This document shows positions 8,910 to 32,756 of a stretch of 63,746 nt of DNA, piece after piece. The notes under the pieces are model-generated. The model saw nothing but the letters and a program-made list of their open reading frames with translations, made no database searches and was not told where the DNA came from. The DNA comes from a virus (Duplodnaviria; Caudoviricetes), in IMG/VR virus record IMGVR_UViG_3300007734_000746, positions 1 to 63,746 of that record; one strand, written 5' to 3'. The position numbers and the translations under genes are program-made. The stretch's first letter is position 1, and every line of letters starts with the position of its first letter.

Positions 8910-8925
8910 CTCAAAGCCCTAAGGC

Positions 8926-9837: not shown

Positions 9838-9850
9838 TTTGAGTTACTCC

Positions 9851-10675: not shown

Positions 10676-10693
10676 TTAAGGACTCCTAAAAAA

Positions 10694-12062: not shown

Positions 12063-12071
12063 ATTTGCTCC

Positions 12072-15083: not shown

Positions 15084-15091
15084 ATAAATCC

Positions 15092-16591
15092 TTAGTAATA
15101 AGATACCTTGCGCCTAAACGCACGAAGTTCGTCTTGCTCATCTGTCTGCAAACGAATAAAGCCGCCTTTTCTGAACCTGATTAATGCCTGGGTGGCGGAG
15201 TCAACCAAGTCATCATTCTCTGAATTAGGGAAAGCAGCCATTTCTTCTATTAGCTCGTCGGCCCACCTTGTAGCAGGAGCCCAGACCTTTCCACTTGCAA
15301 ACAGATCAGATACAGAGTTAATCCTCACCATCTTATCATTACCCCTGCTGGGCGTAAACTCTTGTACCGGTATGCCCATCGCCCGCAATTCAAAAATAAG
15401 CGGCGCTCCCGACGCTTTTGCCTCTACGATAAACGCATCTGGCTCCCACTGTTTATAGTGGTTAAAGGCTTTTTCCTTCAATTCTGGAAACTCCATCCGG
15501 CGTTTAAAAGAATCCAGCAAAATAATATTTGCGTCGTTGGGGTTTTCATTTATATAGAAAACACCCCAGGTAGTACATGCAGAGTAGTCGGACCGCTCTG
15601 TCTTTAAGAATGCCGTATCCCAGCTTTGGATAATGAACTCGCACCTGGGTGGGTCTTCGCTCTTCCACTCCTTCCACCACTCGCGCTTAACAATTGCCCC
15701 TTGTTCAGAGGTGGGGCTTTGCTGATACTGGGCGTTCCATTTTGCGACTGGCAGTTCTGAGCGTAGCGCCTCTAGCTCCTCTAAGCTCCAGAATTCAGGC
15801 CATAAAGGTTTTTCACTAGGCAAGATGGCGGGGAAGTCGATTACCTCCCACTCGTCGTTCCCATCTTTCTCAATAGATGATTGGAGAATCCTGCCTGTAA
15901 GATCTCTTTTTGCCCAGCGAGTCATTACCACTACTATGGACCCCCCTGGCTGAAGACGTTGGCGCGGGCCAGATGTGTACCACTCGTAGACTTTATCAAA
16001 GACAGAAGGATCACCAGCCGCTAGGGCAGCTTCTTGCTCGGAATGTGGGTCATCAATAATAAGCAGGTCCGCGCCCTTACCGGTCACAGTTCCCCCAACG
16101 CCAATAGCAAAATACTCCCCATCCTTATTAGTAGACCACCGCCCCGCAGCCTTACTGTCCTGGCGCAAATTCACATTAGGAAAGATCTTGGCGTACTGCT
16201 CACTACCTACAAGGTTCCTTACCTTACGGCCAAACCCAACAGCAAGCTCAGCCGTATTAGATGTCTGGATGATCTTCTTATTAGGGTACTTCCCCAGGAA
16301 CCAAGCCGGTAGCATGTAGCTGGCAAATTCTGACTTTGTGTGCCGGGGAGGCATGTTAATGATCAGCCTCTTAATCTTCCCAGACGCAATTTCTTCAAAC
16401 TTCCTGGCCATCACCTTATGGTGCCGCCCGTCAATAAAGCCCGGCCACATCGTATGCACAAACTTTAAAAAGTTAGCCTGCGCCTCTTCCCTGGCCAAAG
16501 AAGCCCGGTACTCATCCAACTCATCAAAAAAAGCCTCCTGCTCATTAATAGGCAGGCGACCTATAGCCTCGCTGATAGCGTCAATATTCAT
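15092..16591 (-). CDS. terL: Terminase large subunit
   Basis: INMPPRHTKS (Walker A variant), LLIIDDP (Walker B), QSWDTA, DDLVDS nuclease motifs. Confidence 0.95.
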   Translation of the reverse strand: MNIDAISEAIGRLPINEQEAFFDELDEYRASLAREEAQANFLKFVHTMWPGFIDGRHHKVMARKFEEIASGKIKRLIINMPPRHTKSEFASYMLPAWFLGKYPNKKIIQTSNTAELAVGFGRKVRNLVGSEQYAKIFPNVNLRQDSKAAGRWSTNKDGEYFAIGVGGTVTGKGADLLIIDDPHSEQEAALAAGDPSVFDKVYEWYTSGPRQRLQPGGSIVVVMTRWAKRDLTGRILQSSIEKDGNDEWEVIDFPAILPSEKPLWPEFWSLEELEALRSELPVAKWNAQYQQSPTSEQGAIVKREWWKEWKSEDPPRCEFIIQSWDTAFLKTERSDYSACTTWGVFYINENPNDANIILLDSFKRRMEFPELKEKAFNHYKQWEPDAFIVEAKASGAPLIFELRAMGIPVQEFTPSRGNDKMVRINSVSDLFASGKVWAPATRWADELIEEMAAFPNSENDDLVDSATQALIRFRKGGFIRLQTDEQDELRAFRRKVSYY

Positions 16592-16857
16592 ATATTGCGC
16601 ATAGACAGGTAACTTGGCCGAACACTACGGGCGCTCTTACTCACCCGCTTACATATCCCTAAATCACAAAGCTTCTTAACCACCCTGTGAACATTACCGC
16701 GCCCCTTATCCCCAGTCTGGTACATGATGTCATCTATCGACGGCCCATACCCAAAGTTTTTCCAATACTCATCTATCACAAGAAAAACCGTCCTCTGCTT
16801 CTCCGTCATAAGGTACTCCCTATTCCTCACTACATATGGCTCTTTAGGATACAACAA
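16588..16857 (-). CDS. LexA-type winged-HTH DNA-binding protein lacking the protease domain
   Basis: TEKQ..V..I..Y...GYGPSIDDI....G.....VHRVVKKL..LG...R....ARS; start is TTG 16857 or ATG 16809. Confidence 0.75.
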   Translation of the reverse strand: MLYPKEPYVVRNREYLMTEKQRTVFLVIDEYWKNFGYGPSIDDIMYQTGDKGRGNVHRVVKKLCDLGICKRVSKSARSVRPSYLSMRNI

Positions 16858-16904
16858 CTTTAACTCCTGTTAATGTTTATCTAACTTTAACATCTGTTAA
16901 TGTT
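16856..16904. promoter_or_regulatory. Two tandem 22-bp palindromic operator-like sites
   Basis: AACTTTAAC-TCCT-GTTAATGTT (16856-16877) and AACTTTAAC-ATCT-GTTAATGTT (16883-16904). Confidence 0.75.
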
Positions 16905-16956
16905 CCTTAAAAAATATATACCCCCCACCCTTTTTTGTACAAAAACACAAGGGGGG

Positions 16957-17775
16957 CTATTTGTCAAAATCATCCACTATCTCTGATTCTGTTAATGTTG
17001 AGGGGTGGCCCTGTTTTGACTCTGATCGTTTGAGTTCTATTGATGATCGTTTGAGTGGAATAGTATGTGTACGCGCAGCCCCGACGCCCACGCCCGAATG
17101 CGGGGGTGCCCCCTCGGTGGGGTCGCTGGTGGCGTCGTCGTTGGCCGGTGGCTGGGTTTCCGGCTCTGTCTGTCCGGCAGCTGGCGAGCTGGGAGCCTGG
17201 GCGCCGCGTATCTCGGCCAGTAAATCTAGTGCATCATCCGGCTTAACTTCGGTGGCGTCTACCGCTATGGTCTGGAGCCTGGACAATAGGCGCGTGCGTA
17301 TATCTTCGGACCGGCTAACAGTCGTTATCTCTTTTCGCTCCACGAACGCGCCCACTTCGAATAGGCTACCCAGTAGCTTGAGACATTGGACGCGGGACGC
17401 TGGGGGAAAATCATCATCTAGCGAGTGCTGGACCAGCTGCTGCACTAACAAAGCCTTCAATTGTGCAGGGGTTCGGTGTTTCTCCGCCTCTATTGCCAGC
17501 TTATAAGCCTCTATCTCACGCTTTACCCTAGCATCCGCTGCTAGCTTATATGGTGCCGTCACTATCGTGCTGGGTGCTGGGTTGGCGTTGTATACATCCC
17601 TATACGCTTTAGCCTTACTAGTACCCATCGCTACCGACTCTGCGAATTTACGCTGCTTAGTGGTCAATGCGGGTTTTTTCCCTGCGCCGCTGCTCAGTAG
17701 TGACTCTATGGGGATTGTGTCCAACCCCTGCCGGATTTGCGCCCTTGTTAGTTTCTGTGTGGACTGTCTTGCCAT
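16957..17775 (-). CDS. terS: Terminase small subunit
   Basis: LTTKQRKFA....G.S...AYRDVY HTH; ..LKLLG..; upstream of terL; low-complexity C-terminal tail. Confidence 0.75.
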   Translation of the reverse strand: MARQSTQKLTRAQIRQGLDTIPIESLLSSGAGKKPALTTKQRKFAESVAMGTSKAKAYRDVYNANPAPSTIVTAPYKLAADARVKREIEAYKLAIEAEKHRTPAQLKALLVQQLVQHSLDDDFPPASRVQCLKLLGSLFEVGAFVERKEITTVSRSEDIRTRLLSRLQTIAVDATEVKPDDALDLLAEIRGAQAPSSPAAGQTEPETQPPANDDATSDPTEGAPPHSGVGVGAARTHTIPLKRSSIELKRSESKQGHPSTLTESEIVDDFDK

Positions 17776-17959
17776 TTTTGTTACTGCCTGTGCCTATTGT
17801 GACCATGCGGTATGAATGAAGAACGCGCCGACTGTATCACAACCTATGCGACCATGCAATAAACCACGCGGTAATGCTTTGTACTGGTAAGCCCAACAAT
17901 TGAACCGCCCAGGCTATTTTGTGACCGCCCGTAGAAGTCAATTCTGTATATTGTTCCCG

Positions 17960-17977
17960 TATAAAAACCCCTTGACA
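17960..17977 (+). promoter_or_regulatory. Possible early promoter (-35 box with A-rich upstream element)
   Basis: Perfect TTGACA at 17972-17977 before the first early gene; no clear -10 box at 17 nt spacing. Confidence 0.3.
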
Positions 17978-18047
17978 ACGTGTTATCAGACATGAGAGCA
18001 TAACGACTCGACTGTTTTATTGACCCGCTTACTTAGGAGCCCTCCCA

Positions 18048-18449
18048 GTGAAACCCTTATATCTAATTGCTTGCAGCGCTGCAAAGCTCGACCATGCGGC
18101 CCCAGCTGCCCAGCTATACACCGGCCAGGCTTTCAGGCTTGCAATGGCCGCAGCCGCCCGCGCTGATGCTGACGTTTTAATCCTTAGTGGCTTATATGGC
18201 CCCATATCTCCCGACGCCATCATTGAGCCCTATAACTGCGCCCTTTCAAAGCTCACTAGACGCGGACGCCTTACATGGGAAATTACAACCGCTGGGAAAC
18301 TGATGCAGCACCACGGCCGCGATATCGTTGTTCTAGCGGGTAAACACTACGCCGCCGCCCTAGCGGGTTTCCCTAACGTTTCCTATCCCCTTCACGGCCA
18401 GGGTATTGGCCGGCAACTCCAAACCCTGAAAGGTCTTACCCATGCTTAA
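18048..18449 (+). CDS. DUF6884-like (YaaA-related) protein
   Basis: LIACSAAK...APAAQLYTG..F..ILSGLYG..PY motif; family name from recall. Confidence 0.7.
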   Translation: MKPLYLIACSAAKLDHAAPAAQLYTGQAFRLAMAAAARADADVLILSGLYGPISPDAIIEPYNCALSKLTRRGRLTWEITTAGKLMQHHGRDIVVLAGKHYAAALAGFPNVSYPLHGQGIGRQLQTLKGLTHA

Positions 18450-18714
18450 AACAATGCCCGCCAAATTCGCCGGAACTTGCAGCCGGACCGGCCAGCGCAT
18501 CTCCCGCGGTCAAATGATTGTCTACAACACGGCCACCAAAACCGCCAGCCTATTAAATTTCGACGGGTTCGAGGGACGCCATAACGAAACCGGCGATTAC
18601 ATCCGGCCGGACTATGTAAGCCACGTTATCGACTTTGGCAGCGGGCGCCAGTACTACCGCAACAAAGCCGGACGCTGCGAAGATGCCCCATGTTGCGGAT
18701 GCTGCACGATATGA
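18442..18714 (+). CDS. Cys-rich early protein
   Basis: AKF.G.C..TG..I..G; C-terminal RN..GRCEDAPCCGCC. Confidence 0.7.
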   Translation: MLKTMPAKFAGTCSRTGQRISRGQMIVYNTATKTASLLNFDGFEGRHNETGDYIRPDYVSHVIDFGSGRQYYRNKAGRCEDAPCCGCCTI

Positions 18715-18824
18715 ACCGCGAACATTACCAGCAACGCAGCCGGACGCCGGACATTATCGGCGCCATAGTCGCCGCCCTTATTTGGACCATTGTTTTTTAT
18801 TTTTTTTGGAGCTTGCCCCTATGA
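18711..18824 (+). CDS. 37-aa membrane peptide
   Basis: MNREHYQQRSRTPDIIGAIVAALIWTIVFYFFWSLPL; ATGA-coupled at both ends. Confidence 0.5.
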   Translation: MNREHYQQRSRTPDIIGAIVAALIWTIVFYFFWSLPL

Positions 18825-19069
18825 AATACGTCTACCACACAGACCCTGGCCACGGCTGGATTGAAGTGCCGATTGTGGAGCTGGCCCGCTTGCAGCTCAA
18901 ACCTAGCCCCTATTCCTACTGCAAAGGGACCACGGCATACCTAGAGGAAGACTGCGACGCCAGCGCATGGGCTGAAGCAAAACGCGCAGCCGGTGAACCC
19001 TTCGAGCTGGTAACAAAAAACGTAAACCATGACCACCCTATCCGCAATTACTCACGCTTTGGAGGCTAA
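18821..19069 (+). CDS. Conserved early protein (DPGHGW/YLEEDCD motifs)
   Basis: Start MKYVYHTDPGHGW at 18821; motif recalled from mobile-element leading regions. Confidence 0.7.
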   Translation: MKYVYHTDPGHGWIEVPIVELARLQLKPSPYSYCKGTTAYLEEDCDASAWAEAKRAAGEPFELVTKNVNHDHPIRNYSRFGG

Positions 19070-19072
19070 GCA

Positions 19073-19282
19073 ATGACGAACCAAAAACAAATTCGCGCCG
19101 CATTTTGGGCCGCGCACCCTACCCTAATTCGCCGCCGCCACCGATACGCTTGGAGCGCGAGCGATAAAACTGCCGAGCTTGTTCACCATGTCGATGCGCG
19201 TTGCGCTTTTGCCGATTACATCGACCAGCTGGCCCGCGATGGCATTATCTCCAACGAACTAGCCCAAAGGGTAACGCTATGA
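19073..19282 (+). CDS. Hypothetical early protein
   Basis: 69 aa, GGAGG RBS; R.AF..YID.L.RDG.IS..LA..VTL. Confidence 0.65.
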   Translation: MTNQKQIRAAFWAAHPTLIRRRHRYAWSASDKTAELVHHVDARCAFADYIDQLARDGIISNELAQRVTL

Positions 19283-19449
19283 ACGAATTACACCCACTAT
19301 TTGCGGCCATCCTGAGGCCCTACACGCCGCCCGAACCTACGCCTGAGGCCATAGACGCCGCGATGCTGGCCGACAAACTGGCCGACGGATACAACCGGCG
19401 GAACATCGAGCGCGCAATCAAGCTCGAATTAAAAAACCCGAGGGATTAA
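19279..19449 (+). CDS. Hypothetical early protein
   Basis: MNELHPLF start with ATGA overlap. Confidence 0.55.
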   Translation: MNELHPLFAAILRPYTPPEPTPEAIDAAMLADKLADGYNRRNIERAIKLELKNPRD

Positions 19450-19453
19450 AACC

Positions 19454-20143
19454 ATGCAATACACTTTTATCCGCGCATCTAACAACCGCAAAACCGGCCC
19501 TATTCCCCAAACCTATAGCCCGCGTGCCAGCTGCCCGCCCAGCTGCGCCCACTATGGCGACGACTGTTATGGGGAGGATTTCTACACCCGTATGCAATGG
19601 GACAAAGTCCCAGCGCGAGGCGTGCCCATCGACCAGCTGGCCGGACATATTCGCAGCCTGCCGCCGCGTACGCTATGGCGTCACAATGTAGCGGGCGACC
19701 TTCCAGGCTTAGGGGAGGACGTCGACGCCTACGAGCTGGGGCAAATAGTGGCCGCCAATATTGGCCGCCGAGGGTTCACCTATACCCATAAGCAAAGCGC
19801 CCAGGCTATCAATTGGGCTCGCCATGCTACCGCTTGGGGATTTACTGTAAACCTAAGCGCCGACGACGCCGGACACGCCGACGCGCTAAGCGGGCAGGGT
19901 TTGCCGGTAGTGTGCATAGTCCCCAGCGATACGCCGAAGCTCTCATATACGCCAGCTGGACGCCGCATTGTCGTATGCGAGGCCCAAACCCGCGACGAGG
20001 CAACGTGCGAAAACTGCGGCAATTGGGATGCATGGTGCGCGCGCCCCGAGCGTGATTTTATCGTTGGGTTTCGCGCCCACGGAACCAAAGCAAAACGCAC
20101 CGACCAGTTGGCGCGCAAAGTAATCCCCATCCTGAAAGGCTAA
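19454..20143 (+). CDS. Fe-S/radical-SAM-like phage protein (GP88/DUF7227-related)
   Basis: N.KTGPIP..SCPPSC......CY, RHNVAGD, YTH, NLSAD, C-terminal C..TC.NC...C..GF.AHG. Confidence 0.6.
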   Translation: MQYTFIRASNNRKTGPIPQTYSPRASCPPSCAHYGDDCYGEDFYTRMQWDKVPARGVPIDQLAGHIRSLPPRTLWRHNVAGDLPGLGEDVDAYELGQIVAANIGRRGFTYTHKQSAQAINWARHATAWGFTVNLSADDAGHADALSGQGLPVVCIVPSDTPKLSYTPAGRRIVVCEAQTRDEATCENCGNWDAWCARPERDFIVGFRAHGTKAKRTDQLARKVIPILKG

Positions 20144-20146
20144 ACC

Positions 20147-20362
20147 ATGCTACACCTAACCCACACCGGATTTTATGCTGGGCGCCCTATTTGCGGCGCC
20201 GAGCGCAGCCCTCAGGATACCCACTTGCACGCGGTATACGCGCCGCTAAACAATGCCGAGCTGCGCGGCCAAGTATGCCCCGATTGTCTAAAAATATGGG
20301 CTAACTCATACGACGACGAACCGGCGCCCGATTGGGTCCAAGCCTTGAAGGCGGCAGCGTGA
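20147..20362 (+). CDS. Small Zn-binding protein
   Basis: ICG..HAVY..CPDC. Confidence 0.6.
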   Translation: MLHLTHTGFYAGRPICGAERSPQDTHLHAVYAPLNNAELRGQVCPDCLKIWANSYDDEPAPDWVQALKAAA

Positions 20363-20550
20363 ACCACCCCGAAGCCTACTACATCGACGCGGGTTACCGA
20401 TACGAACGTATATCGGCGCCCGCCAATCGAATCAAAAGGGCAAAGGAGCTGCAAGCCCTAATCGCCGCCGAAACGCCCGATAACCGCACCCTGGCCCGCG
20501 AGCTCATCCAGCGAGGCCGGAAAGAATTCCAACTTAACGCAAAAGGCTAA
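20359..20550 (+). CDS. Hypothetical early protein
   Basis: GTG start overlapping the upstream TGA; YIDAGY.YER motif. Confidence 0.55.
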   Translation: MNHPEAYYIDAGYRYERISAPANRIKRAKELQALIAAETPDNRTLARELIQRGRKEFQLNAKG

Positions 20551-20553
20551 AAA

Positions 20554-20739
20554 ATGAAAACATCCACCGACCTATTGACCCAGCTCAGATTCCAAATGAT
20601 TCAAATGGAAGAGTTACGCGAGGCGCTCGACCGCTTGGCATATTGGGCGGGAATGAACACCCAGCACCTACCCGACGCCGCCATGACCGAGGAGCTGATA
20701 GACGCCACGCACGCCGCCCGCCAATTGCTCGACCAGTAA
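20554..20739 (+). CDS. Hypothetical early protein
   Basis: 61 aa helical ORF within the operon. Confidence 0.6.
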   Translation: MKTSTDLLTQLRFQMIQMEELREALDRLAYWAGMNTQHLPDAAMTEELIDATHAARQLLDQ

Positions 20740-20740
20740 A

Positions 20741-20783
20741 CCCTTAAAGCCTCACGCGTGGGGCTTTGGGGGCGATATTGCCC
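20741..20783 (+). promoter_or_regulatory. Hairpin + GGGCGnTATTGCCC element, copy 1
   Basis: 14-15 bp stem immediately after a stop codon, then a 14-bp near-palindrome. Confidence 0.65.
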
Positions 20784-20805
20784 AACATTAACAGGAGTTA
20801 AAGTT
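20784..20805. promoter_or_regulatory. 22-bp palindromic site overlapping an RBS
   Basis: AACATTAACAGGAGTTAAAGTT is the exact reverse complement of 16856-16877; ATG follows at 20806. Confidence 0.75.
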
Positions 20806-21018
20806 ATGGATACCCACAAGCTGGTCCGCACAGACGGAACGCCCGCCACGATAGGCGACATCTACATCACTAACCGGCTGGAGAGTTACGAGCTAACCGG
20901 CGGTCGGCCACCGCAGCACCCAGCCAGCACCGGCAGGGTTTATGTAAGGGAAGCAAAAGACGGGTTTACACGGGAATTCTTTCCCTCTGTGATTGGACTC
21001 AAGTGGGAGGAAGTATGA
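20806..21018 (+). CDS. Hypothetical early protein
   Basis: AGGAG RBS; GGRPP.HP.STGRVYV..EFFPSV.GLKW. Confidence 0.7.
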   Translation: MDTHKLVRTDGTPATIGDIYITNRLESYELTGGRPPQHPASTGRVYVREAKDGFTREFFPSVIGLKWEEV

Positions 21019-21194
21019 AACGCTGCGACCATCTATTAGCTGATAGCTGGTGGGAACATGATGGCCGAGGCATTCCCTTGGCCAGGGTTTGCGATAAGTG
21101 CTATGACGCCGTTATGGCCCGCTATGACCCAAAAATATTTGAGGTCTACAACCAATCCGATGTTGACGAACCAATTGAGGGGGACGAATGGTAA
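21015..21194 (+). CDS. Small Cys-containing protein
   Basis: WE.DGRGIPLARVC.KC; GGAGG RBS. Confidence 0.65.
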   Translation: MKRCDHLLADSWWEHDGRGIPLARVCDKCYDAVMARYDPKIFEVYNQSDVDEPIEGDEW

Positions 21195-21382
21195 TAACAA
21201 AACCCCAAGATATAGCACTCTACCGGCTTTTGACGCTGCGAACAGGGTTAAAGCTGGAGATACGCGGCCTAAAGGTAAGCAAAGGGCGCTCGTGCTATGC
21301 AATCATAAAACAGGAATTCGGATTCAAAGGCGATAAAGCCAGCGTGCTAGAGCAATTCGAAAATTACCTATCCGGCCAGTAA
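21188..21382 (+). CDS. Hypothetical early protein
   Basis: LKLEI.GLK.S.GRS.YA.IK..FG.KG. Confidence 0.65.
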   Translation: MVITKPQDIALYRLLTLRTGLKLEIRGLKVSKGRSCYAIIKQEFGFKGDKASVLEQFENYLSGQ

Positions 21383-21385
21383 GCA

Positions 21386-21426
21386 CTTCAAGCCCAGCGT
21401 GCTGGGTTTGAGGGGCGCTATTGCCC
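21386..21426 (+). promoter_or_regulatory. Hairpin + GGGCGnTATTGCCC element, copy 2
   Basis: CTTCAAGCCCAGC/GCTGGGTTTGAGG stem followed by GGGCGCTATTGCCC. Confidence 0.65.
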
Positions 21427-21446
21427 TATAAAAGAAGGAGTAAGCC

Positions 21447-22004
21447 ATGCCAAACTGGTGTGCAAATTCGTGCCGCATGACGGCTTCGCAAGACAACCCC
21501 ATGATGGGGAAGATACTGGACGAACTAAAAAAAGGCAAAGATGCCCAGTGGTTTCAGGCAGTTAAGCCTGTGCCGCAGCCGCTGATGGATGCCCTCGCAA
21601 CCCACGGAGAAATGTCAGACGAACAAAAGAAACTGGTGGAGGAATTTGGGCATCGTAGCTGGTATGACTACTGCATCGCAGAGTGGGGCACCAAGTGGGA
21701 TGCGTCAATAGAACGCTATGTGCAAGATGGCGACTCTATCATTGTTTACTTTGACACGGCATGGGCACCGCCCGAAGGAATCTACGCTGCAATGGAGGCC
21801 GCGGGAATTGAGGTAGAAGCCACCTACATTGAGCAAGGCGTAGGTTTTATGGGATACCGCAAAGATGGCATCGACCATATGTGCGATACGCCTGATTACG
21901 AAGAAAATGAGGACGGCGAACCAACCGAAGCCTACTACGAAGCAATCAACGAGGTTTGGGAAGATGCTGGCATGAACCACGCACCCAGCAACATGGGAGG
22001 CTGA
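21447..22004 (+). CDS. DUF1281/YubB ferredoxin-like protein
   Basis: MPNWC.N, WY....WGTKW, FDTAWAPP, Y.E.G..F.G motifs. Confidence 0.8.
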   Translation: MPNWCANSCRMTASQDNPMMGKILDELKKGKDAQWFQAVKPVPQPLMDALATHGEMSDEQKKLVEEFGHRSWYDYCIAEWGTKWDASIERYVQDGDSIIVYFDTAWAPPEGIYAAMEAAGIEVEATYIEQGVGFMGYRKDGIDHMCDTPDYEENEDGEPTEAYYEAINEVWEDAGMNHAPSNMGG

Positions 22005-22005
22005 T

Positions 22006-22239
22006 ATGAACCTAGATTACAACGTATTCGCAGTTGACTACCGCCGTAACGTCGGCAGCGCATCGCCCCAAACTGTATCGCAGTTTATCGAGAGACTGAA
22101 GGACGATATGGAGGGAGAAGTAGACCATGACGCCCTTTATGAAGAGTTTTCTGAAAACTACACCAGCATCATGGACGCATTGGGAATGTGGGAAGCCGGT
22201 GCGGCCCACGCTCGCAAACTTATGAAAGAACAGAAATGA
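22006..22239 (+). CDS. Hypothetical protein
   Basis: 77 aa, GGAGG RBS. Confidence 0.6.
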   Translation: MNLDYNVFAVDYRRNVGSASPQTVSQFIERLKDDMEGEVDHDALYEEFSENYTSIMDALGMWEAGAAHARKLMKEQK

Positions 22240-22415
22240 AAACATTTAATTTTTCAGCCAATGGGCTAGATTTTGGAAAATGGGTGGCACAGACTCAAAA
22301 AGACGCGCAAGACGCATTCGCGTCCGATGCGGGTTATAAATCGTGGACCGATATGTGCGAGCGCGCTGAAGAATTCGGCGGAAACAATGTAGAAATTAAA
22401 GAGGTGAGAGCATGA
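22236..22415 (+). CDS. Hypothetical protein
   Basis: MKTFNFSANG start, ATGA-coupled; AFA.DAGY. Confidence 0.55.
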   Translation: MKTFNFSANGLDFGKWVAQTQKDAQDAFASDAGYKSWTDMCERAEEFGGNNVEIKEVRA

Positions 22416-22709
22416 TTTACCGCATTTACAACCACAACCATACCCTGCTGGGGGAATTCAAGACGCAGAAAGAGGCCAATAAAGAGGCCATGCTCTATAT
22501 GCGCGAAACAGGCAATGCCGCCTATGTAATGAAAGAGAAGCTATGAAAGTCACTTTTACCTACAAACAAATGGAAGCATTCGCGCTGGGCTACTACCACG
22601 CCCGCAGCGGCCAGCATGAGCAAAACGACTTTATGACGCCGCTAGAGATATGGTCCTACCACCGAGGCTACGATACTGGCGTCCAGGCGCTGAAGCTGGA
22701 GGTATCGCC

Positions 22710-22904
22710 ATGAAAACGAGAGAAGAAATGGTCTACGAACTGACAAAGCACGAACTGGAGTACCTGTTTGACATGAATGGGGATTTTGATGATGTTGTGC
22801 AATTTTTTGCCGTTGGTGGATTTAACGCCTACAAAGACAAAGAGTTACAAAAAAAATGGGAATTCCTATTTACCGACACTTTTCCACAAGGAGCGCAAGC
22901 ATGA
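22710..22904 (+). CDS. Hypothetical protein
   Basis: MKTREEM start with GGAGG RBS. Confidence 0.55.
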   Translation: MKTREEMVYELTKHELEYLFDMNGDFDDVVQFFAVGGFNAYKDKELQKKWEFLFTDTFPQGAQA

Positions 22905-23086
22905 CACTCGAAGATGGTGATTACGAACTGGTGGACGGCGCAGCTTGGCTTGCCGTCAGAGGCTTTTCGGTGCGTATCTTTAGCACCGATAACGGCATTG
23001 ATGTACGCATCTACAAGAATGGAGCGGAGGACGAAGGCGCTATCGCAGCCACCTTTGCCGCAGATTCTGAATTGGAGGGACTATGA
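22901..23086 (+). CDS. Hypothetical protein
   Basis: MTLEDGDY start with AGGAG RBS. Confidence 0.6.
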   Translation: MTLEDGDYELVDGAAWLAVRGFSVRIFSTDNGIDVRIYKNGAEDEGAIAATFAADSELEGL

Positions 23087-23451
23087 ACCCACGAATCAAA
23101 CAAAGATGGCTGGAAGCTCTCCGCAGCGGAGAGTACAAGCAGACCACGGAAAACCTACGCGATATCAATGGATTTTGCTGCCTAGGTGTTTTGTGCGACC
23201 TTCATGCAAAAGAACGCGGCACGAACTGGGAGCAACTCATTGACTCCTATCAACTGTACGGAGAAACCCAAACACTTCCGCTATCAGTACAGGAATGGGC
23301 TGGGCTAGACAATGATATAGGCGGCATGGTCGATTTTGAGTACGAAAGTGATGGTGTTATGTACGTTAAATCGGATTCTTTGCCTGAGCTAAACGACAGT
23401 TGGAACAAAAACTTTAACGAGATTGCAGATCTAATTGAAGCTCAGCTTTAG
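23083..23451 (+). CDS. Conserved phage protein
   Basis: W.EALRSGEYKQ....L......CCLGVLC..ND....F.EIAD.IE. Confidence 0.75.
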   Translation: MNPRIKQRWLEALRSGEYKQTTENLRDINGFCCLGVLCDLHAKERGTNWEQLIDSYQLYGETQTLPLSVQEWAGLDNDIGGMVDFEYESDGVMYVKSDSLPELNDSWNKNFNEIADLIEAQL

Positions 23452-24233
23452 AAAAACGGACGGAGGGATTCGGCAGCGGCCATGCTGCCTACCCTCTGCT
23501 CAAAATCGTTGAAATCTTCCCCAGCCTCTCCTAGCCAGTAGCGAGAGGCTATTTTTTTAGCAGTCCCTACGCCCATCGGGTCGTTATCGGCCACCACAAT
23601 CGGGTTATTCAACCCTTTGGCTATCTCCAGCATATTCCCAGCCGAGAAACAAACGTGGATTGTGTACCGCTGCCGCGCCAGCTTCAGCGCTCGACGCACC
23701 GATAAACCCGTCGCCAGCCCCTCAACTAGAACGTCCGGCCCCTTGTTGTCAATGACCAGGCTCGCCCCTTTGGTCTGCTGCCCTGACAAAAAGCGTTTCG
23801 TTCCGTCTGTGTGTATTAGCTGGAGGCCAACTAGGTTGCCAGCCACCCGCATGGGGACAGTCAGCAGCCCCTTCCAAACTTTAGCTGGCTCTGGAAATCC
23901 TTTTCGGACCAAGTAAGGGTGCTGCTCGACTTTAACATTGTTAAAGATGAAAGCCGCCTTTTTAGCCGCCTCGGCCTGTTGTTTTACCCTATCCTCGCGC
24001 TGCTTTTGGCGCTTGGCCGCAGCCTGTGGGTCCGGCACGAATGGTTTATCAGAAACGTACCTAATTGGAGACTGGTGGACTGCGTGGTTCTGTATGAGGC
24101 CATTTCTGCCGTCAAATATGTACGCGCCGTTCTTCTTCCGTGGGTGGTCCTCTGTTGGGACTCTCACCCAGCGGCCCTCAATCACATGGTCTATTAAAAG
24201 GCCATTTTCTCTAGCAAAATCTTCAAAGCTCAT
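23448..24233 (-). CDS. Toprim-domain primase
   Basis: HPYL..KG, LQ.I..DG.K.F..G, EGLATG, ADND, DFND motifs. Confidence 0.85.
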   Translation of the reverse strand: MSFEDFARENGLLIDHVIEGRWVRVPTEDHPRKKNGAYIFDGRNGLIQNHAVHQSPIRYVSDKPFVPDPQAAAKRQKQREDRVKQQAEAAKKAAFIFNNVKVEQHPYLVRKGFPEPAKVWKGLLTVPMRVAGNLVGLQLIHTDGTKRFLSGQQTKGASLVIDNKGPDVLVEGLATGLSVRRALKLARQRYTIHVCFSAGNMLEIAKGLNNPIVVADNDPMGVGTAKKIASRYWLGEAGEDFNDFEQRVGSMAAAESLRPFF

Positions 24234-25693
24234 GCTCTAGCCTTTGCCCAAGCGATGTTGCGACTCTTAATCCATTGCAATGTCTTGAAGCTGGGAGTCT
24301 TTATAGCCGCCTCAAGGCCGCGAGGAAACGCGCCATACTTTTCTTTGTACTTGTGTGCAGCCCAGCCGTCTTTGTAGCCACGCATACGACTGTAGTACAG
24401 AATTTCTGAATAGAACCTTTGATTTTCTGCAATGAAATTCTTTTGTCCCGTATCCAACTCTATCATTTGGCCTGGTACGTTTAGCACCTCTTTCATGGGA
24501 CGAGTCCAGCCACACTGGCCGCAAACTCGGTCCGGCCATATCCAAAGCGCACCGCAGCCGCCGCACTTGGATTCTTTTTTTACCTTCTCGGTAGGCTCTT
24601 TCTTGGCTGATTCAGCGCCGTCATGCAGTTCTTTGACGCCTTCCTCAAACAATCCGTCCCACTCTTTCCTGAAGCGCAAATAGTTTCCTGAATGGTCTAG
24701 CCAGACGCCATGCGTTTTACCCTCGCAAGGCCGCATGATTCGGCCCATCTGTTGTACATGGGAGGAAAAGGACTTGGAAAACGGCCTCGCTGACACGCCT
24801 ATCAGCACATCAGGGACGTCAAAACCTCTAGTTAGTATGTCGGTGGCAATCAGCCCATGAATTTTTGTGTCAGGGGCGCTGAAGTCCTCAATTGTCTCCC
24901 TTTTGAAGTCATCATCTTCCTTGTAAGAGATAGAAACGAAGTTATACCCGCGCTCGTTAAACTGCCTAACAAGGTCGCGTCCATGCTCTACGCCGGAGGC
25001 AAACACCACAGTCTTTTTAGGACCGCCAAACAGTTGGTTGGTCTTGTTTATCCACTCTTCAACTATGTCGCCTGTAATCTTCATGCCGCGCTCTGTTGCC
25101 TCGTTCTGCGACCATTCTCCGGCCACTTTCTTAGCCCCGCTCATGTCGATTTCTTTGGCTATAAAAATCTTAAGAGGAACCAACCACTTCTCTTCTATCA
25201 ATTCCCCTGTTGGCTTTGCTCCGACTACATTGGTGTATGTAGAGCCCAGGCCATTTGTGAAGGGTGTAGCGGTAAGGCCAATCACCCGAATTTCAGAGTG
25301 TTCCTTGATGAATTCAATTACCTGTTTGCGCTGGACATGGCACTCATCAATGATGATGAGTCCAACATTGGGGAAGTCATCCCTACGTTCCAATGTCTGC
25401 GCGCTGCACACTTGGATTCTTTCATAGGGACGATAACGCCAATGGCCAGATTGCATCACGCCGTGGTTGATGCCGTACTTGGATAGGCGCGTGCTGGTTT
25501 GGTTAACCAACACAATCCTATCTAACACCATCGCAACCCTGACGCCTTTTTTAGCCTCTTGAACCATGATGTGCATGGCTACTTCTGTTTTGCCAAAACC
25601 TGTCGGGGCGTACAACAGTTGGCAGCGGTGCTGGGAGAAGCCCTGTTCGAGCTTCTCCACCACATCCGCTTGATGTGGTCTTAAATTAATCAT
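24230..25693 (-). CDS. Superfamily 2 DNA helicase
   Basis: LRPHQ, APTGFGKT, DECH, LTATP, GFDVP, QQMGR motifs and Zn finger; start 25693 with AGGAG RBS. Confidence 0.93.
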   Translation of the reverse strand: MINLRPHQADVVEKLEQGFSQHRCQLLYAPTGFGKTEVAMHIMVQEAKKGVRVAMVLDRIVLVNQTSTRLSKYGINHGVMQSGHWRYRPYERIQVCSAQTLERRDDFPNVGLIIIDECHVQRKQVIEFIKEHSEIRVIGLTATPFTNGLGSTYTNVVGAKPTGELIEEKWLVPLKIFIAKEIDMSGAKKVAGEWSQNEATERGMKITGDIVEEWINKTNQLFGGPKKTVVFASGVEHGRDLVRQFNERGYNFVSISYKEDDDFKRETIEDFSAPDTKIHGLIATDILTRGFDVPDVLIGVSARPFSKSFSSHVQQMGRIMRPCEGKTHGVWLDHSGNYLRFRKEWDGLFEEGVKELHDGAESAKKEPTEKVKKESKCGGCGALWIWPDRVCGQCGWTRPMKEVLNVPGQMIELDTGQKNFIAENQRFYSEILYYSRMRGYKDGWAAHKYKEKYGAFPRGLEAAIKTPSFKTLQWIKSRNIAWAKARA

Positions 25694-25728
25694 GCTTTCT
25701 CCTGCTGGGAAACCGCCCAGCTTCGGTG

Positions 25729-26544
25729 TTATGCGGCCTTTTCGGCTCTGCGCTTCCAATAGTTTATCTGCTTTAGCATCTCTGCGTTTTTAGCCATGAA
25801 CTCATCCCTGCTATGTGTCACGGATTTGAGTTTAGCCTCCAACTCTTTGACTTGCTCGCGCAACGACTCAATGGTTTCTTGGACCTCAGCTCGCGCCTCT
25901 TCTGAAACAGGCAAGGACCGCACGGCCAGCATATCTTTGAGCTTTGTGTTCTCTTCAGATACCGCGCTGATTTCTGTAGCCAGCTCATTGAGCTTATCTT
26001 CTTCTTCAAATTCAGGCTCGGGATAAGCCGCAGGAAGGGCGGCGGGCTTGCGGCCAATGTTGGAAGTGTCACGGCGTTTGCCATCTTTACCAACAGAGGT
26101 TTCCTTCTTCAACCCCAAGGCTTTGCGTACACGGCCAACAGTCATGTTGCTGACCAGGCAAATCTGAGCAATCTGTGTGTCGGATAAATCACCCAACTCA
26201 ATGTCTTCAAGCGCAAGCTGGACAACGTAGCGGCGCTCTTCAGGCGTCCTAGCTTTGCCATGTTGTGCGTTAGCTTTGAGCGAGGCAATAAAGGCGTCAC
26301 GCTTTGTGCCTTGAATGACGTTGGAGTCAATGTCTTTGTGGCCTGCACGTTTGTGTGCGTGCCAGCGGTGAAAGCCATCGGAAAGCCAATAATGTTTGCC
26401 GTCAAAATGCAAATCGACTGGAGGGAACTCTTGCCCTTCAAGTATCTCTTCGGTGTAGTGCTGGACCAGGGTTTCGTCTAGCTCTTTGCGGGGCTGTGTT
26501 CCACCATCAAGGCGGATTTTTGTAAGCAAGATTTTTTCAGTCAT
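25729..26544 (-). CDS. ParB-N-domain protein with HTH and coiled coil
   Basis: TQPR..FPPV..LSDGFHRW; HTH LSDTQIAQICLVSNMTVGRVR. Confidence 0.8.
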   Translation of the reverse strand: MTEKILLTKIRLDGGTQPRKELDETLVQHYTEEILEGQEFPPVDLHFDGKHYWLSDGFHRWHAHKRAGHKDIDSNVIQGTKRDAFIASLKANAQHGKARTPEERRYVVQLALEDIELGDLSDTQIAQICLVSNMTVGRVRKALGLKKETSVGKDGKRRDTSNIGRKPAALPAAYPEPEFEEEDKLNELATEISAVSEENTKLKDMLAVRSLPVSEEARAEVQETIESLREQVKELEAKLKSVTHSRDEFMAKNAEMLKQINYWKRRAEKAA

Positions 26545-26704
26545 TTTTTTCCTTCAGTAGTTGGCGCAGTTGCACCATTGCGTCTTTGAGGTCGCCCTGC
26601 AATTGCATGATGGCCTCTTGTTGTGCCTGCATCCTCTTGTAAGAATCAGATGCAAACTTTGCTAGGTTTTCATTGGACCAAGCTGCGAAATTCGGCATGT
26701 CCAT
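26537..26704 (-). CDS. Small coiled-coil protein (55 aa)
   Basis: MDMPNFAAWSNENLAKFA..., translated by hand; AGGAG RBS. Confidence 0.65.
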   Translation of the reverse strand: MDMPNFAAWSNENLAKFASDSYKRMQAQQEAIMQLQGDLKDAMVQLRQLLKEKND

Positions 26705-26962
26705 TCATCTCCTTTCGTTTAACGGTTTTTTAACTGGTTTGGGGCAATTCTTTGGGGGTACGATAGCACGCCAAACAGCCTGCGCTGGCTCGCTTTGCTT
26801 TGCTTCTGTCCACCTATCAATGTATGTGTCAGGCATATTTCGCAGAGCTTGGTACGCAGAACCTTTTTTGATGCCAAGGGTTTCCGCTATAGATCTTACT
26901 GTGAGGCCATCACTATGTCGGCGCAGCAACCGCCGAATATTTGGATGATTTGGGGGGATCAT
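26705..26962 (-). CDS. HTH DNA-binding protein
   Basis: DGLTVRSIAETLG....AYQAL..MPD.YIDRW. Confidence 0.6.
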   Translation of the reverse strand: MIPPNHPNIRRLLRRHSDGLTVRSIAETLGIKKGSAYQALRNMPDTYIDRWTEAKQSEPAQAVWRAIVPPKNCPKPVKKPLNERR

Positions 26963-27144
26963 TTATCATTTGCCTTCATTTCTTTTATGGCTGACATCAT
27001 GTCGGAAATGGCGGTAATCGCCATCGCGCACTCATCAAGGGCGTCATCATACTGCTTGTCTAACATCTTCAAATGCACTTCTTTTAAGGCTTGCTCGGCC
27101 CTCATACATGGAAGTGCGTAGTCAATTACTTTTTCAATTTTCAT
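26959..27144 (-). CDS. Hypothetical protein
   Basis: IDYA.P.M.AE.ALK motif; coupled to neighbours. Confidence 0.6.
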   Translation of the reverse strand: MKIEKVIDYALPCMRAEQALKEVHLKMLDKQYDDALDECAMAITAISDMMSAIKEMKANDK

Positions 27145-27341
27145 TTGCTTTTTACTTTCTTGTGGTCCATAGCTCCTGGTCGGGAACAATCGTTTTTTGG
27201 CGGCTCATACACGGGCCTATCCCAAATGCTAAACGTGGGCGGCAGCGCCTCATTTTCTGCGCGTTGCCTTGGCTCCCAAGGGTCTTTTAACCCAAGGTCT
27301 TTGCGATGGATGGAGTTATCATTTCTAGGTATAAAGGTCAT
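27141..27341 (-). CDS. Hypothetical protein
   Basis: Y.PP....RPGA.DH motif. Confidence 0.55.
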   Translation of the reverse strand: MTFIPRNDNSIHRKDLGLKDPWEPRQRAENEALPPTFSIWDRPVYEPPKNDCSRPGAMDHKKVKSK

Positions 27342-27627
27342 TAGTTTTTCTCCAGTTTTTATTGTTCTTCTCTTTCAACTTGTTTTTGAGGGATTGGTTT
27401 TGGCGCAGCAGTTCACCGATTACACCTAAGTGATCGCTTCTGCGGGCTTCCAGTGTGTCAATGGTGCGCAAGATCAGGCGCTGAAGTTCATCCATGCGCC
27501 GCTTAACCATTTCCTTTTGGTACTCCGCATAGGGGGGGGTCACACCGTCCACAATAACTTTGTCAGGCGCGTGGAAGTTGTCTTTTAGTTCAAACTGTTC
27601 GAACTGTTTAAGTAGGTCTTGTGTCAT
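27325..27627 (-). CDS. Hypothetical coiled-coil protein
   Basis: Start MTQDLLK at 27627. Confidence 0.55.
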   Translation of the reverse strand: MTQDLLKQFEQFELKDNFHAPDKVIVDGVTPPYAEYQKEMVKRRMDELQRLILRTIDTLEARRSDHLGVIGELLRQNQSLKNKLKEKNNKNWRKTNDLYT

Positions 27628-27943
27628 GTGTCTCTTTCTCCTTTGGTTTAAATAAGCCCATTGCAAGGAACCAGTCTTGGAACACATCAGCAGGGCGACA
27701 CGCTAGGTATATGCCTCTGCTATCACGCGCTTTGGATATGGCGGCAACTATGTCTTTCCAATCGTCTTGGTTCATGCCGTAGTGCATGTTAGGTTGCGGC
27801 CCAAAGTTAGGGTACTTCTTATCCCAAGAACCGTTTGCCTTGGCCCCTGCAACAATTGCTTCAAATGTTTCATCCGGCATGTCATACTGGCGGCTAGCGT
27901 AGACCATTTTGTCGGGGTCGGTGGGATGTGGTTTAAGCGGCAT
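27608..27943 (-). CDS. Hypothetical modular-array protein
   Basis: Start MPLKPHP after an AAGGAGAAGAAC junction. Confidence 0.6.
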   Translation of the reverse strand: MPLKPHPTDPDKMVYASRQYDMPDETFEAIVAGAKANGSWDKKYPNFGPQPNMHYGMNQDDWKDIVAAISKARDSRGIYLACRPADVFQDWFLAMGLFKPKEKETHDTRPT

Positions 27944-28187
27944 TGTTCTTCTCCTTGAGAATTGACTCTGCACTGGTTGCAGCTTGAAGTTTAGTAAAGC
28001 AAGATTGATTGATTGCTGAAAAATCTTCCTCTGTTAGCCCTACCCATTTAAGTTTTACGCCTGACAGTTTTAAGTCTGCCCTCATCAGGTCTTTTAATAC
28101 CTGCTCGTCTTCGTCATGCCAGTTTTCAGGATATGCTTGTTTAAATGTGTCTAGCGTATCCCACGCTCGGCGCAGTAAGTTAATCAT
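27933..28187 (-). CDS. Modular-array protein (WVGLT...LKEKN module)
   Basis: C-terminal module shared with neighbours. Confidence 0.65.
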   Translation of the reverse strand: MINLLRRAWDTLDTFKQAYPENWHDEDEQVLKDLMRADLKLSGVKLKWVGLTEEDFSAINQSCFTKLQAATSAESILKEKNNAA

Positions 28188-28573
28188 GTGTTCTTCTCCT
28201 TGAGTACGGCTTCAATTGCACGGGCAAATTCAAATCTGTCTGCGTATGGCATAGTATTGCTGATAGCAAATATTTCCGCATCATCCTTCAACCCAACCCA
28301 CGGGCGTTTGATGCTAAGTGGTAGTAGGTCATGTAGGTCTTTTACATATTGTGGTACATCGCCAACGTGAAGGTTGTTGTCCTTTAAGTTTATGCGTAGC
28401 TTGACTTCGTTGCTGCTGTACAGCTTGCCGTCTTTGTCGTAATACCAGTATGTAGCGTCTTTGAGTCGGGCGTCGTTAAATAACTGTGCAAACTTGTATA
28501 TCTCAGGCGTCATCTGCTTGATGCCAGCTTCAGCGCCAAGCCTATCCAGCTTTTCTATTAGTCGTTCAGTCAT
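28184..28573 (-). CDS. Modular-array protein (RPWVGL...LKEKN module)
   Basis: Start MTERLIEK with AGGAG RBS. Confidence 0.65.
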   Translation of the reverse strand: MTERLIEKLDRLGAEAGIKQMTPEIYKFAQLFNDARLKDATYWYYDKDGKLYSSNEVKLRINLKDNNLHVGDVPQYVKDLHDLLPLSIKRPWVGLKDDAEIFAISNTMPYADRFEFARAIEAVLKEKNT

Positions 28574-28584
28574 TGTTTTTCTCC

Positions 28585-28905
28585 TTACCATTTTGGGTTT
28601 GTTACACGCTCATTCGCTTGCTCCCAAGTCCACTCAGGTCGCATGTGTCGAGTCCATTCGACTCTCGCATGTAGGGCTTGAAGGTACAAGAATTGAGGGT
28701 CTTTTTTCCAAGGTTCCCAGTCTTTCCTTTCTATCATGCCCGCACGAACATCTGCGCAGATGTTGGCATGGCAAGCGCCTCTCCACCAGTTGTCTCCGTC
28801 TCGCTTCTTCAATCCCGATTTGACGTACAACCAATACTTGATTCGGTGTGTGTATGATGCCAGCCTCCGCGCCAGCGTTGCTATTAGTCGTTCAGCCATG
28901 TTCAC
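28585..28905 (-). CDS. Hypothetical Trp-rich protein
   Basis: 106 aa with GGAGG RBS. Confidence 0.5.
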   Translation of the reverse strand: MNMAERLIATLARRLASYTHRIKYWLYVKSGLKKRDGDNWWRGACHANICADVRAGMIERKDWEPWKKDPQFLYLQALHARVEWTRHMRPEWTWEQANERVTNPKW

Positions 28906-29074
28906 CTCCTAATACGGCTACTATATTTTTCCAATCTTCTGATGTTGGCTTCCTACCAAACTCGCGCTCAAAATGTCTGGCGGTTTGGCCGATCCATATC
29001 AAGCGGTTCATAACTTCTTCAGCACCAAGTTCAGCTTCGAGTCGTTTAAATTCCGGTTGGTCTGTGAGTCTCAT
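28892..29074 (-). CDS. Hypothetical protein
   Basis: Start MRLTDQ at a junction repeat. Confidence 0.55.
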   Translation of the reverse strand: MRLTDQPEFKRLEAELGAEEVMNRLIWIGQTARHFEREFGRKPTSEDWKNIVAVLGGEHG

Positions 29075-29253
29075 GCGTTCTTCTCCTTTTCTAAAAAACT
29101 GTCCAGCACATTTTGTTGGTACTTTGCTTGATGTGCCGCTGCTTCCCAAAAACCTATTAGGGCTTGCTGCTCTACTAACCAAGCAAATACGCGCAGTTCA
29201 GGCGTTAACTCGACCCGCGCTTCCTTTGCAAGTTCTTCTACTGGTTTTTTCAT
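29071..29253 (-). CDS. Hypothetical protein (LEKEKN end)
   Basis: Start MKKPVEE, ATGA-coupled. Confidence 0.55.
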   Translation of the reverse strand: MKKPVEELAKEARVELTPELRVFAWLVEQQALIGFWEAAAHQAKYQQNVLDSFLEKEKNA

Positions 29254-29435
29254 GTGTTCTCCTGTGGTGGTGTGCAAGTGTGAATGTTCCATGTGCGTTT
29301 GCCGCATAGGGGACATAAGTTTTGCTTTAGACTAGCTATTGCTGCTTTCTTGCCATCGTAGTAGCCTGACTGGTATGCAATCAGCAGCGCATTGCCATCG
29401 TCTTTGTAGACCTGTGTATCGTCATCTTCATCCAT
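29250..29435 (-). CDS. Modular-array protein with Zn finger
   Basis: AYQSGYYDG; CPLCGKR...IHTCTPPQ. Confidence 0.6.
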   Translation of the reverse strand: MDEDDDTQVYKDDGNALLIAYQSGYYDGKKAAIASLKQNLCPLCGKRTWNIHTCTPPQENT

Positions 29436-32746: not shown

Positions 32747-32756
32747 GTTGTTCCCC

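Follow-up and report, generated by a model that had tools for sequence, protein, structure and literature searches.

Does a tailed phage keep one part of its genome free of the words that restriction enzymes cut, and if so, which part and for what reason? The question is raised by the Caudoviricetes record IMGVR_UViG_3300007734_000746, a complete viral record of 63,746 bases that was analysed whole (hereafter the window), in which the tetranucleotide GATC nearly vanishes upstream of the gene for the large terminase subunit (terL), from the middle of the putative gene for the small subunit (terS) through a divergent operon of small early genes. We found that this stretch lacks several unrelated short words besides GATC, that related phages have lost other words at the same place, and that the words were cleared where they stood. 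The explanation that we favour, and regard as probable without being assured, is that of a local restriction-site desert: the zone would have to work before restriction is disarmed, most probably as the last-packaged, first-entering end of a genome with a fixed end in or beside terS. The layout below is based on a listing of open reading frames (ORFs) and on protein-family scans (PHROG, Pfam and others) of the window.

15092 to 16591, minus strand: terL, with normal site density (6 GATC, 7 CCAGA, 3 CCSGG)
16957 to 17775, minus strand: putative terS, first gene of the late operon (PHROG 51, weak match, E 7.8e-6)
17049 to 23427: GATC-free stretch of 6,379 bases
17272 to 23427: core clean zone without GATC, CCSGG, ACAGC/GCTGT or CCAGA/TCTGG, covering the 5′ part of putative terS, the divergent intergenic region and the whole first early operon
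18048 to 23451, plus strand: first early operon, about 12 small ORFs, divergent from terS
37434 to 23448, minus strand: second early operon (primase, helicase, ParB-like, RtcB), converging on the first
23448 to 26544, minus strand: primase, helicase and ParB-like genes at the distal end of the second operon (0 GATC, 0 CCSGG, 1 ACAGC)
37435 to 41052, plus strand: third non-structural operon (PD-(D/E)XK exonuclease, Erf, HNH)
Late operon, minus strand: starts at putative terS and runs through the coordinate origin to the tail genes and a polyvalent protein

Loss of GATC upstream of terL

None of the 133 GATC sites of the window lies between those at 17045 and 23428, a gap of 6,383 bases, and the lone site at 23428 to 23431, which falls in the final codons of the first operon's last ORF and 20 bases before the end of the convergent primase gene, is followed by another only at 26892. 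An earlier note on this DNA had claimed just such a desert, empty from 17049 to 23427 and with a single site from there up to 26891, and the count agrees with it to the base. Its figure of about 25 sites expected in 6.4 kb is correct as a 1/256 value, but a scaled Markov estimate comes to about 17. Over 17049 to 26891 the one site present compares with 38.2 expected from base composition, 27.4 from a first-order and 25.6 from a maximal-order Markov model, the Markov expectations being computed from the zone's own sequence. GATC is the only depleted 4-base palindrome in the desert and the most depleted of the 136 strand-symmetrised 4-mers (z -4.9, the next being -2.3; Poisson P 2e-10). When 133 sites were placed uniformly, a gap of at least 6,383 bases arose in about 1.5e-4 of 20,000 trials. 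Synonymous codon shuffling of the 18 ORFs of the region gave a mean of 22.8 GATC and a minimum of 12, and since none of 500 shuffles came down to one site or fewer, codon usage and amino-acid content are not the cause. Short-word counts against Markov expectations, the check that the earlier note had named, thus leave the depletion standing, with no missed sites.

The word is near expectation in the structural stretches (52 against 60.2 in 1 to 17048 and 69 against 80.2 in 37168 to 58200), where the earlier note had rightly called it frequent. Beyond the desert a weaker depletion goes on to about 37.2 kb (9 against 25.6 in 26892 to 37167), and GATC is also scarce in 58189 to 63746 (2 against 13.1). 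Counted by transcription unit, observed over expected, the zone of the first operon has 1/15.9, the second operon 10/35.6, the third 14/18.3 and the late genes 52/60.2 and 56/73.0, with an abrupt rise at 37.2 to 37.5 kb, in a divergent promoter zone. The third operon serves as an internal control: it is non-structural and near normal, so non-structural status is not what matters.

Several unrelated words share the desert

GATC is not alone. In 17049 to 26891 ACAGC/GCTGT occurs twice against 24.3 expected, with no copy from 16240 to 26492; CCSGG, which we take to be the NciI/BcnI site, is absent against 12.5 expected and is missing all the way from 16505 to 33777; and CCAGA/TCTGG is reduced to 4 against 19.6. 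The depletion is weaker for CASTG (3 against 13.2) and for ACCGT/ACGGT (1 against 9.0). For each of these six words the observed count lies below all 500 synonymous shuffles, and the asymmetric ones are absent in both orientations. Outside the zone, in 1 to 17048 and 37168 to 58188, GATC, ACAGC, CCSGG and CCAGA stand at 0.8 to 1.2 of expectation, and a sliding 10-kb scan found at least two words at P<1e-4 only in windows starting at 16001, 18001 and 20001. The absence is thus restricted to a block, with normal frequency elsewhere, and among the words considered only CCATGG is depleted over the whole genome. At least two of the words serve in restriction-modification: Neisseria meningitidis has CCAGA as a Type IIS word and GATC as its DpnII-type word (PMC7973814).

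To chance, base composition or codon usage we give practically no credence as an explanation. The zone is indeed more G+C-rich than the remaining genome (0.55 to 0.57 at 17 to 21 kb, against 0.45 to 0.50 across most of the window), a feature that its relatives show inconsistently; against such an effect stand the Poisson probability and first rank of GATC, the shuffles, which failed to reach the observed count for any of the six words, and the fact that the Markov expectations were taken from the zone itself. A cause of the Dam, MutH or SeqA type, acting on GATC alone, was considered and dropped, as five other words are absent and relatives lose other words.

Some further gaps were noticed in the course of the counts. 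CCATGG is absent from the entire record (0 against about 15 expected, summed over regions) and GCCGGC is rare in it (5 against about 22); this is a genome-wide avoidance of two 6-base palindromes. The second early operon also holds a 9.1-kb gap free of GGWCC, from 27165 to 36256.

Other words missing at the same place in relatives

When viral contigs were searched with TerL, 599 matching stretches came up, from which 80 loci of 76 to 96% identity were taken. The GATC desert itself is not conserved among them: upstream of terL most relatives have normal counts, such as 40 against 42.9 or 50 against 55.1, the nearest has 21 against 32.0, and a few have GATC deserts of their own (2 against 20.8; 1 against 8.8). 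What is conserved is the place of depletion. All 24 loci that were scanned carry at least two words at P<1e-3 within 8 to 10 kb upstream of terL, and the depleted sets vary by lineage, drawing on GGWCC, CCWGG, GGCC, GTAC, AGCT, ACGT, CGCG, CCGG, GCWGC, CGWCG, CASTG, GATC, ACAGC and CCAGA. Over equal 4-kb stretches the depletion score was higher upstream than on the terL side in 20 of 21 loci (Wilcoxon P 2.9e-6), some of these loci being close kin and not fully independent, and the mean number of words at P<1e-3 was 2.86 upstream and 0.38 downstream. Repeating the count in relatives, as the earlier note had proposed, thus finds other words cleared at the same place. In whole contigs, comprising four near-complete relatives and one partial, local depletion has its hot spot in the 10 to 12 kb upstream of terL, and an ACAGC desert common to three relatives occurs in this zone only. 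Some words are depleted throughout a genome: CCWGG in two of these relatives (G003 and G004), CGCG in G004, and GGWCC, which is wholly absent from a third (G002).

The two edges of the desert differ. In the window the near edge lies inside terS, where GATC at 17024 and 17045 and CCAGA at 17271 are the last sites, with no further sites of the four words as far as 23427. In each genome compared, terL is site-dense up to 130 to 960 bases upstream of its start, and a site-free stretch of 5.5 to 13 kb follows. This was measured without circularity by picking words for each locus in the interval from -6 to -2 kb only and counting them elsewhere, 5 of 20 loci being dropped for lack of a word. Density per 250 bases is 0 to 0.2 between -2000 and -1250, climbs through terS and reaches 1.6 to 2.6 over terL, whereas on the far side, between -7 and -9 kb, it has come back only to 0.1 to 0.7, and at -9 kb to roughly one third of its value over terL. 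When the 15 loci are pooled, the 1 kb upstream of terS has 0.47 sites per kb and the 5′ half of terS 0.64; its 3′ half has 2.24, the interval from terS to terL 3.51, and terL itself 6.28. The near edge, which lies in mid-terS and within the late operon, is sharp; the far edge is graded. In G000, G003 and G004 the wholly clean zone coincides with the divergent first operon, the words having been chosen from that same zone. Contigs of relatives also tend to break off here: of 53 whole contigs, 26 have an end in the 1.3 kb upstream of terL and 7 in the 1.3 kb downstream of it (P 0.0013), a clustering that could mark either a physical end of the genome or the beginning of hypervariable sequence.

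These edges bear on whether the DNA has to enter in order. The whole genome might instead enter at once, so that only operons transcribed before disarming must stay uncut, while cuts elsewhere would be endured or mended after the early proteins have come into play, for example through nuclease inhibitors, recombination by Erf and the exonuclease, or host ligase. Depletion does track transcription units, as the graded counts and the step at 37.2 to 37.5 kb show, the lone GATC sits at the extreme end of the first operon, and comparable unit-wise steps occur in G003 and G004. A rule of expression alone does not, however, account for a desert that extends into the 5′ half of a late gene, where the pooled density is a tenth of that in terL, nor for the absence of all four words from 17272 to 18047 in the window, nor for CCSGG and ACAGC deserts that reach well past the first operon. 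Moreover, we know of no phage that survives many Type II cuts by tolerance or repair. Unordered entry is therefore an unlikely account in our view, if one to be taken seriously.

Clearing in place or import

A desert with a border in a conserved gene could also be a historical footprint, left if an early module was imported through a junction in terS from a donor line long exposed to these enzymes. The first operon is variable among relatives, with several ORFs that lack a counterpart; unitig branch points lie at 16729 to 16751 and 17357 to 17386 in three runs; the tail module has a desert of its own (CCWGG, GGWCC) and two relatives have lost CCWGG genome-wide, so that module footprints are plausible; and G+C is raised at 17 to 21 kb, against 0.47 to 0.48 elsewhere. 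The comparison of genes speaks against this. The zone is syntenic with that of the nearest relative at 78 to 86% identity, against 88% for terL, and terL, portal, primase, helicase, ParB and DUF7227 all have their closest counterpart in one single relative. Among the 21 loci, pairwise TerL identity correlates with that of helicase (Spearman 0.90, 18 loci), primase (0.87, 19 loci) and ParB (0.83, 14 loci), loci being dropped where the match covered less than 80% of the gene and the variable small ORFs lying outside the test; the discordant phylogeny expected of an imported module was not found for the conserved genes.

These same genes have lost the word in a lineage-specific manner. Primase, helicase and ParB hold 0, 0 and 0 GATC in the window, against 0, 3, 0 and 4, 3, 4 and 8, 8, 3 in three relatives. 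In 20 of 36 alignment columns with a relative's GATC, by hand count, the window has the same dipeptide in another spelling, for example GACC for Asp-Pro, whereas the GATC sites of terL and portal stand at identical positions in the window and its nearest relative. Since the conserved early genes co-diverge with TerL and have lost GATC largely synonymously, we conclude that the stretch was cleared in place and not imported. An imported footprint also fits poorly with an ACAGC desert confined to the zone in three relatives, with the lack of depletion of these words on the structural side of any relative, with one sharp and one graded edge in place of two sharp ones, and with a place that is constant in 20 of 21 loci while the words differ. 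Taken together, mosaic ancestry seems to us quite improbable. Selection thus operates at present on this stretch but not on the remaining genome.

Genes of the zone and of the rest of the window

The remaining features on which the argument touches are these.

18048 to 18449, plus strand: DUF6884 ORF, first early operon
19454 to 20143, plus strand: DUF7227 ORF, first early operon
21447 to 23451, plus strand: four acidic proteins with isoelectric points (pI) of 4.2 to 4.9, first early operon
16588 to 16857, minus strand: 89-residue winged-helix protein with a LexA DNA-binding domain, between terS and terL
12672 to 15083, minus strand: portal
8926 to 9837, minus strand: capsid protein
33489 to 34679, minus strand: full-length RtcB RNA ligase, second early operon (Pfam E 6.7e-129)
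41036 to 51226, minus strand: polyvalent virion-type protein of 3,396 residues
4147 to 4656, 6171 to 6578 and 40687 to 41052: three HNH or endonuclease VII-type genes

The family scans assigned no known function to any ORF of the first early operon. The Protein Atlas gave only "DUF7227" and "hypothetical" clusters for 19454 to 20140 and 21447 to 22001, and a search for functional literature on DUF6884 and DUF7227 found none. TerL matched Pfam Terminase_6C only. The polyvalent protein carries a weak C5-methylase-like domain at about residues 1195 to 1400 and an LPD38 domain at 3093 to 3291, and its final 900 residues match three PHROG families of unknown function. A search of solved structures gave no match for TerL or the polyvalent protein, and one meaningless match for terS. 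By TerL the closest named phages are the Pelagibacter phages HTVC027P and HTVC023P and phage 023Pt_psg01, at 54 to 58% identity, and megablast of 15092 to 26891 against the named phage collection gave no match. A scan of 16500 to 27500 for sigma-70-like promoters is uninformative, since it found fewer sites (5) than shuffled sequence did (9.3).

Two observations concern possible functions of neighbouring elements. RtcB might counteract tRNA-cutting nucleases of the host. Immediately upstream of the winged-helix ORF lies a 22-base direct repeat (copies at 16856 to 16877 and 16883 to 16904), followed by a 36-base palindrome at 16921 to 16956, and together they are candidates for an operator or a terminase binding site. 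As a conserved packaging signal the repeat was rejected, because among 20 relatives only one (L002) has it, in a single copy.

The gene content also bears on whether the phage avoids its own enzymes, in that early phage nucleases directed at host DNA might cut these words while later-arriving or later-replicated DNA is spared. The phage has the three HNH or endonuclease VII-type genes listed above, and the pre-early genes of T5 degrade host DNA; the way in which T5 spares itself is described as unclear (PMC10644984). None of these genes, and no match to a nuclease domain, lies within the early operon, however. Four to six unrelated words would require several specific nucleases, and the word sets resemble ordinary Type II sites and change between close relatives. 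We consider such self-avoidance very improbable.

Order of entry as a probable cause

What has to be explained is the depletion together with its specificity and position, the fact that it recurs in relatives, and its origin where it stands. From these we infer an order of entry, a fixed end, and a protecting early function in both its existence and its identity. Under the explanation that we favour, words of the host lineage's restriction enzymes (GATC, CCSGG, CCAGA and ACAGC-type) would have been removed by selection from mid-terS through 18048 to 23451, while the neighbouring replication operon would have been cleared less and the remaining 40 kb would keep such words at expected frequency. 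DNA of the zone would be exposed, and in need of expression, before the phage neutralises restriction. Most probably it would be the end of the genome that is last to be packaged and first to enter, with the fixed end in or beside terS, and its early products would then shield the DNA arriving later. The first operon is directed inward, away from the putative end, as are the early genes of T7. The core of the earlier note, which saw here DNA purged of restriction sites and a remainder dependent on later protection, is strongly supported, and now extends to four to six words and to the relatives. Its more specific claim, that of a last-packaged, first-ejected end, would fit the sharp edge in mid-terS; that edge and the contig ends clustered there would be indirect support for a terminal position, and the graded far edge and the inward course of the operon are hints of staged entry. 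Its proposal of a co-injected methyltransferase domain as the protector has fared less well: the matches are weak and C5-cytosine-like, and because one methylase cannot cover several unrelated words, a co-injected methylase is an unlikely protector. The four acidic proteins are candidates for an anti-restriction role, and candidates only.

A number of observations weigh against this explanation. The assignment of terS is weak, and the family scans matched no known anti-restriction family in the early operon. The direction of packaging, from terS to terL, is borrowed from other phages, and headful packaging would mean no fixed leading end. The record's "direct terminal repeat" is an exact 127-base overlap of both ends, which we read as an artefact of circularisation by the assembler; the coordinate origin is thus arbitrary, and the record marks no physical genome end. 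Contigs from four runs (X1 to X4) over 8001 to 28000, without raw reads, showed no pile-up of molecule ends. The steps in GATC density match operon borders and fit a rule based on time of expression equally well. The unitig branch points at 17357 to 17386 in three runs would fit a recombination junction at the edge. Of four named distant relatives (TerL 48 to 58% identical), Pag-Yong1, HTVC027P and 023Pt_psg01 have no local desert upstream of terL and DSL-LC04 has a weak one; gene order differs in these phages. As for ACAGC, a literature search for it as a restriction word gave only a simple-sequence repeat in a methylase gene. Finally, a second desert over the tail genes, described below, cannot be explained by entry order.

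Some side observations belong to the same contigs and phages. Unitig borders also lie at 16729 to 16751 in the X1 to X4 contigs, and summed depth is raised in the bin 16672 to 17338 (31.1 against about 15 in X1; 23.3 against about 5 in X3). In X3 the interval 16729 to 17386 is a separate 658-base unitig at depth 19.1, against 5 to 7 in its neighbours, and borders at 16751 and 17357 are found again in X1 and X2. This unitig may represent an island common to co-occurring strains, with its right border near the edge of the desert. In the Planktothrix phage Pag-Yong1 (L100) an annotated SAM (S-adenosylmethionine) lyase gene lies at 14515 to 14829 in a divergent unit about 5 kb upstream of terL; SAM lyase is a known kind of anti-restriction gene, and we take this occurrence as a lead only. 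Phage 023Pt_psg01 (L099, first 39.4 kb) has no CATG, against 16 to 22 expected per 8 kb, and no CTAAG/CTTAG, against 10 to 12, in every window examined, which is a genome-wide avoidance.

A second desert over the tail genes

A second local desert covers the tail and tail-spike genes, at 54938 to 63746 and 1 to 3024. CCWGG is missing from 54938 through the origin to 3024, and GGWCC from 54503 through the origin to beyond 4000; a second GATC gap, from 58189 to 62321, lies in the same tail region. At the matching place, +12.5 to +27.5 kb from terL, other words have a hot spot of depletion in two relatives (G002 and G003). Since this desert stands outside the logic of entry order, local deserts in the family have more than one cause. 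The tail desert may be the footprint of exchanged host-range modules.

Likeness to T5, T7-like phages and plasmids

Experiments on two groups of phages have tied restriction to the DNA that enters first. Type I, II and III systems fail against T5-like phages unless their sites lie in the first-step-transfer DNA (PMC10644984; Davison and Brunel 1979 cited there), and the T7-like Murciavirus is restricted via a Type I motif only when the motif lies in the first-injected region (PMC12455610). The authors of the latter work hold that selection by restriction works at a sub-genomic scale and is confined to phages whose genomes have fixed ends (PMC12455610).

The window resembles T5, BF23 and other Tequintavirus phages in that sites are kept out of a small early block and tolerated over the bulk of the genome; the block takes up about 8% of the genome in T5 and, as the core clean zone, about 10% (6.2 kb) here. 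In both T5 and the window the block holds small genes of unknown function that may serve host takeover, and the two inversely oriented pre-early units of BF23 may be set beside the two convergent early operons of the window. The differences are as clear. In T5 the block belongs to a terminal repeat some 10 kb long, and behind it comes a non-coding injection stop region rich in repeats. In the window, the unitig 17357 to 23962 (6.6 kb) has depth 15.2 in X1, the likely source run, against 12.9 to 22.7 in its neighbours, with no sign of doubling, contig depth being a crude measure. No repeat-rich non-coding border was found in 16500 to 27500, only short scattered repeats, and two non-coding gaps of about 410 bases (20144 to 20553 and 22240 to 22649) contain no repeat array. 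The block of the window abuts terS and has its edge inside that gene, and two-step entry has been shown for T5, whereas the window is known from sequence alone.

In Murciavirus the motif matters only in the first-injected region, and natural isolates and escape mutants are without it there; its early region is highly variable and is thought to carry anti-defence genes (PMC12455610). That case concerns one bipartite Type I motif and is experimental, whereas the window offers several 4- and 5-base Type II-like words, seen in its sequence. The position differs as well. T7-like genomes have short terminal repeats and terminase genes at the far end, while the zone described here adjoins terS and is divergent from it.

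The leading regions of conjugative plasmids are likewise first-entering, enriched in anti-defence genes and G+C-rich (PMC13478746), and the zone of the window is also richer in G+C. Those regions enter single-stranded and, according to the same source, show no consistent depletion of short palindromes, in contrast to the strong and consistent depletion in the window's clade.

The classical genome-wide avoidance of restriction sites in phages, reportedly treated by Rusinov et al. 2018 (cited in PMC8594841 and PMC12455610), is similar in that selection acts against short, mostly palindromic Type II words, to which CCATGG in the window and CCWGG, CGCG and GGWCC in relatives would correspond. It differs in that the depletion described here is local, the same words occurring at expected frequency in the other 40 kb. 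A search of the literature on local avoidance in phages, supplements aside, found no work on this clade or on a terS-anchored desert. The T5, BF23 and Murciavirus cases are known; what is particular here is the near edge inside terS, the two operon-wise tiers of depletion, and word sets that differ between close relatives.

Significance

The rule that restriction acts on the DNA used first has been experimental only in T5-like and T7-like phages, and it is here extended by sequence comparison to an unrelated, uncultured clade. Whole-genome avoidance counts would miss such a local signal, as is also argued in PMC12455610, and local word deserts may be suggested as a tool to orient metagenomic phage genomes and to infer the enzymes of their unknown hosts. 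The 5.4-kb operon is a place to seek new Type II restriction inhibitors, and it is a testable prediction that the genome of this clade ends in mid-terS.

More tentatively, and with rather less confidence than we place in the explanation favoured above, the profile could be taken as a physical record of infection, in which the edge in mid-terS would mark the clade's terminus or packaging start, the graded edge and operon steps would reflect the extent of entry or the time of exposure, and the word sets would be those of the enzymes of uncultured hosts. If this is true, polarity, early genes, candidate anti-restriction genes and host enzyme repertoires would be readable from the sequence of uncultured phages alone, and staged entry of DNA would be common well beyond the T5- and T7-like phages.

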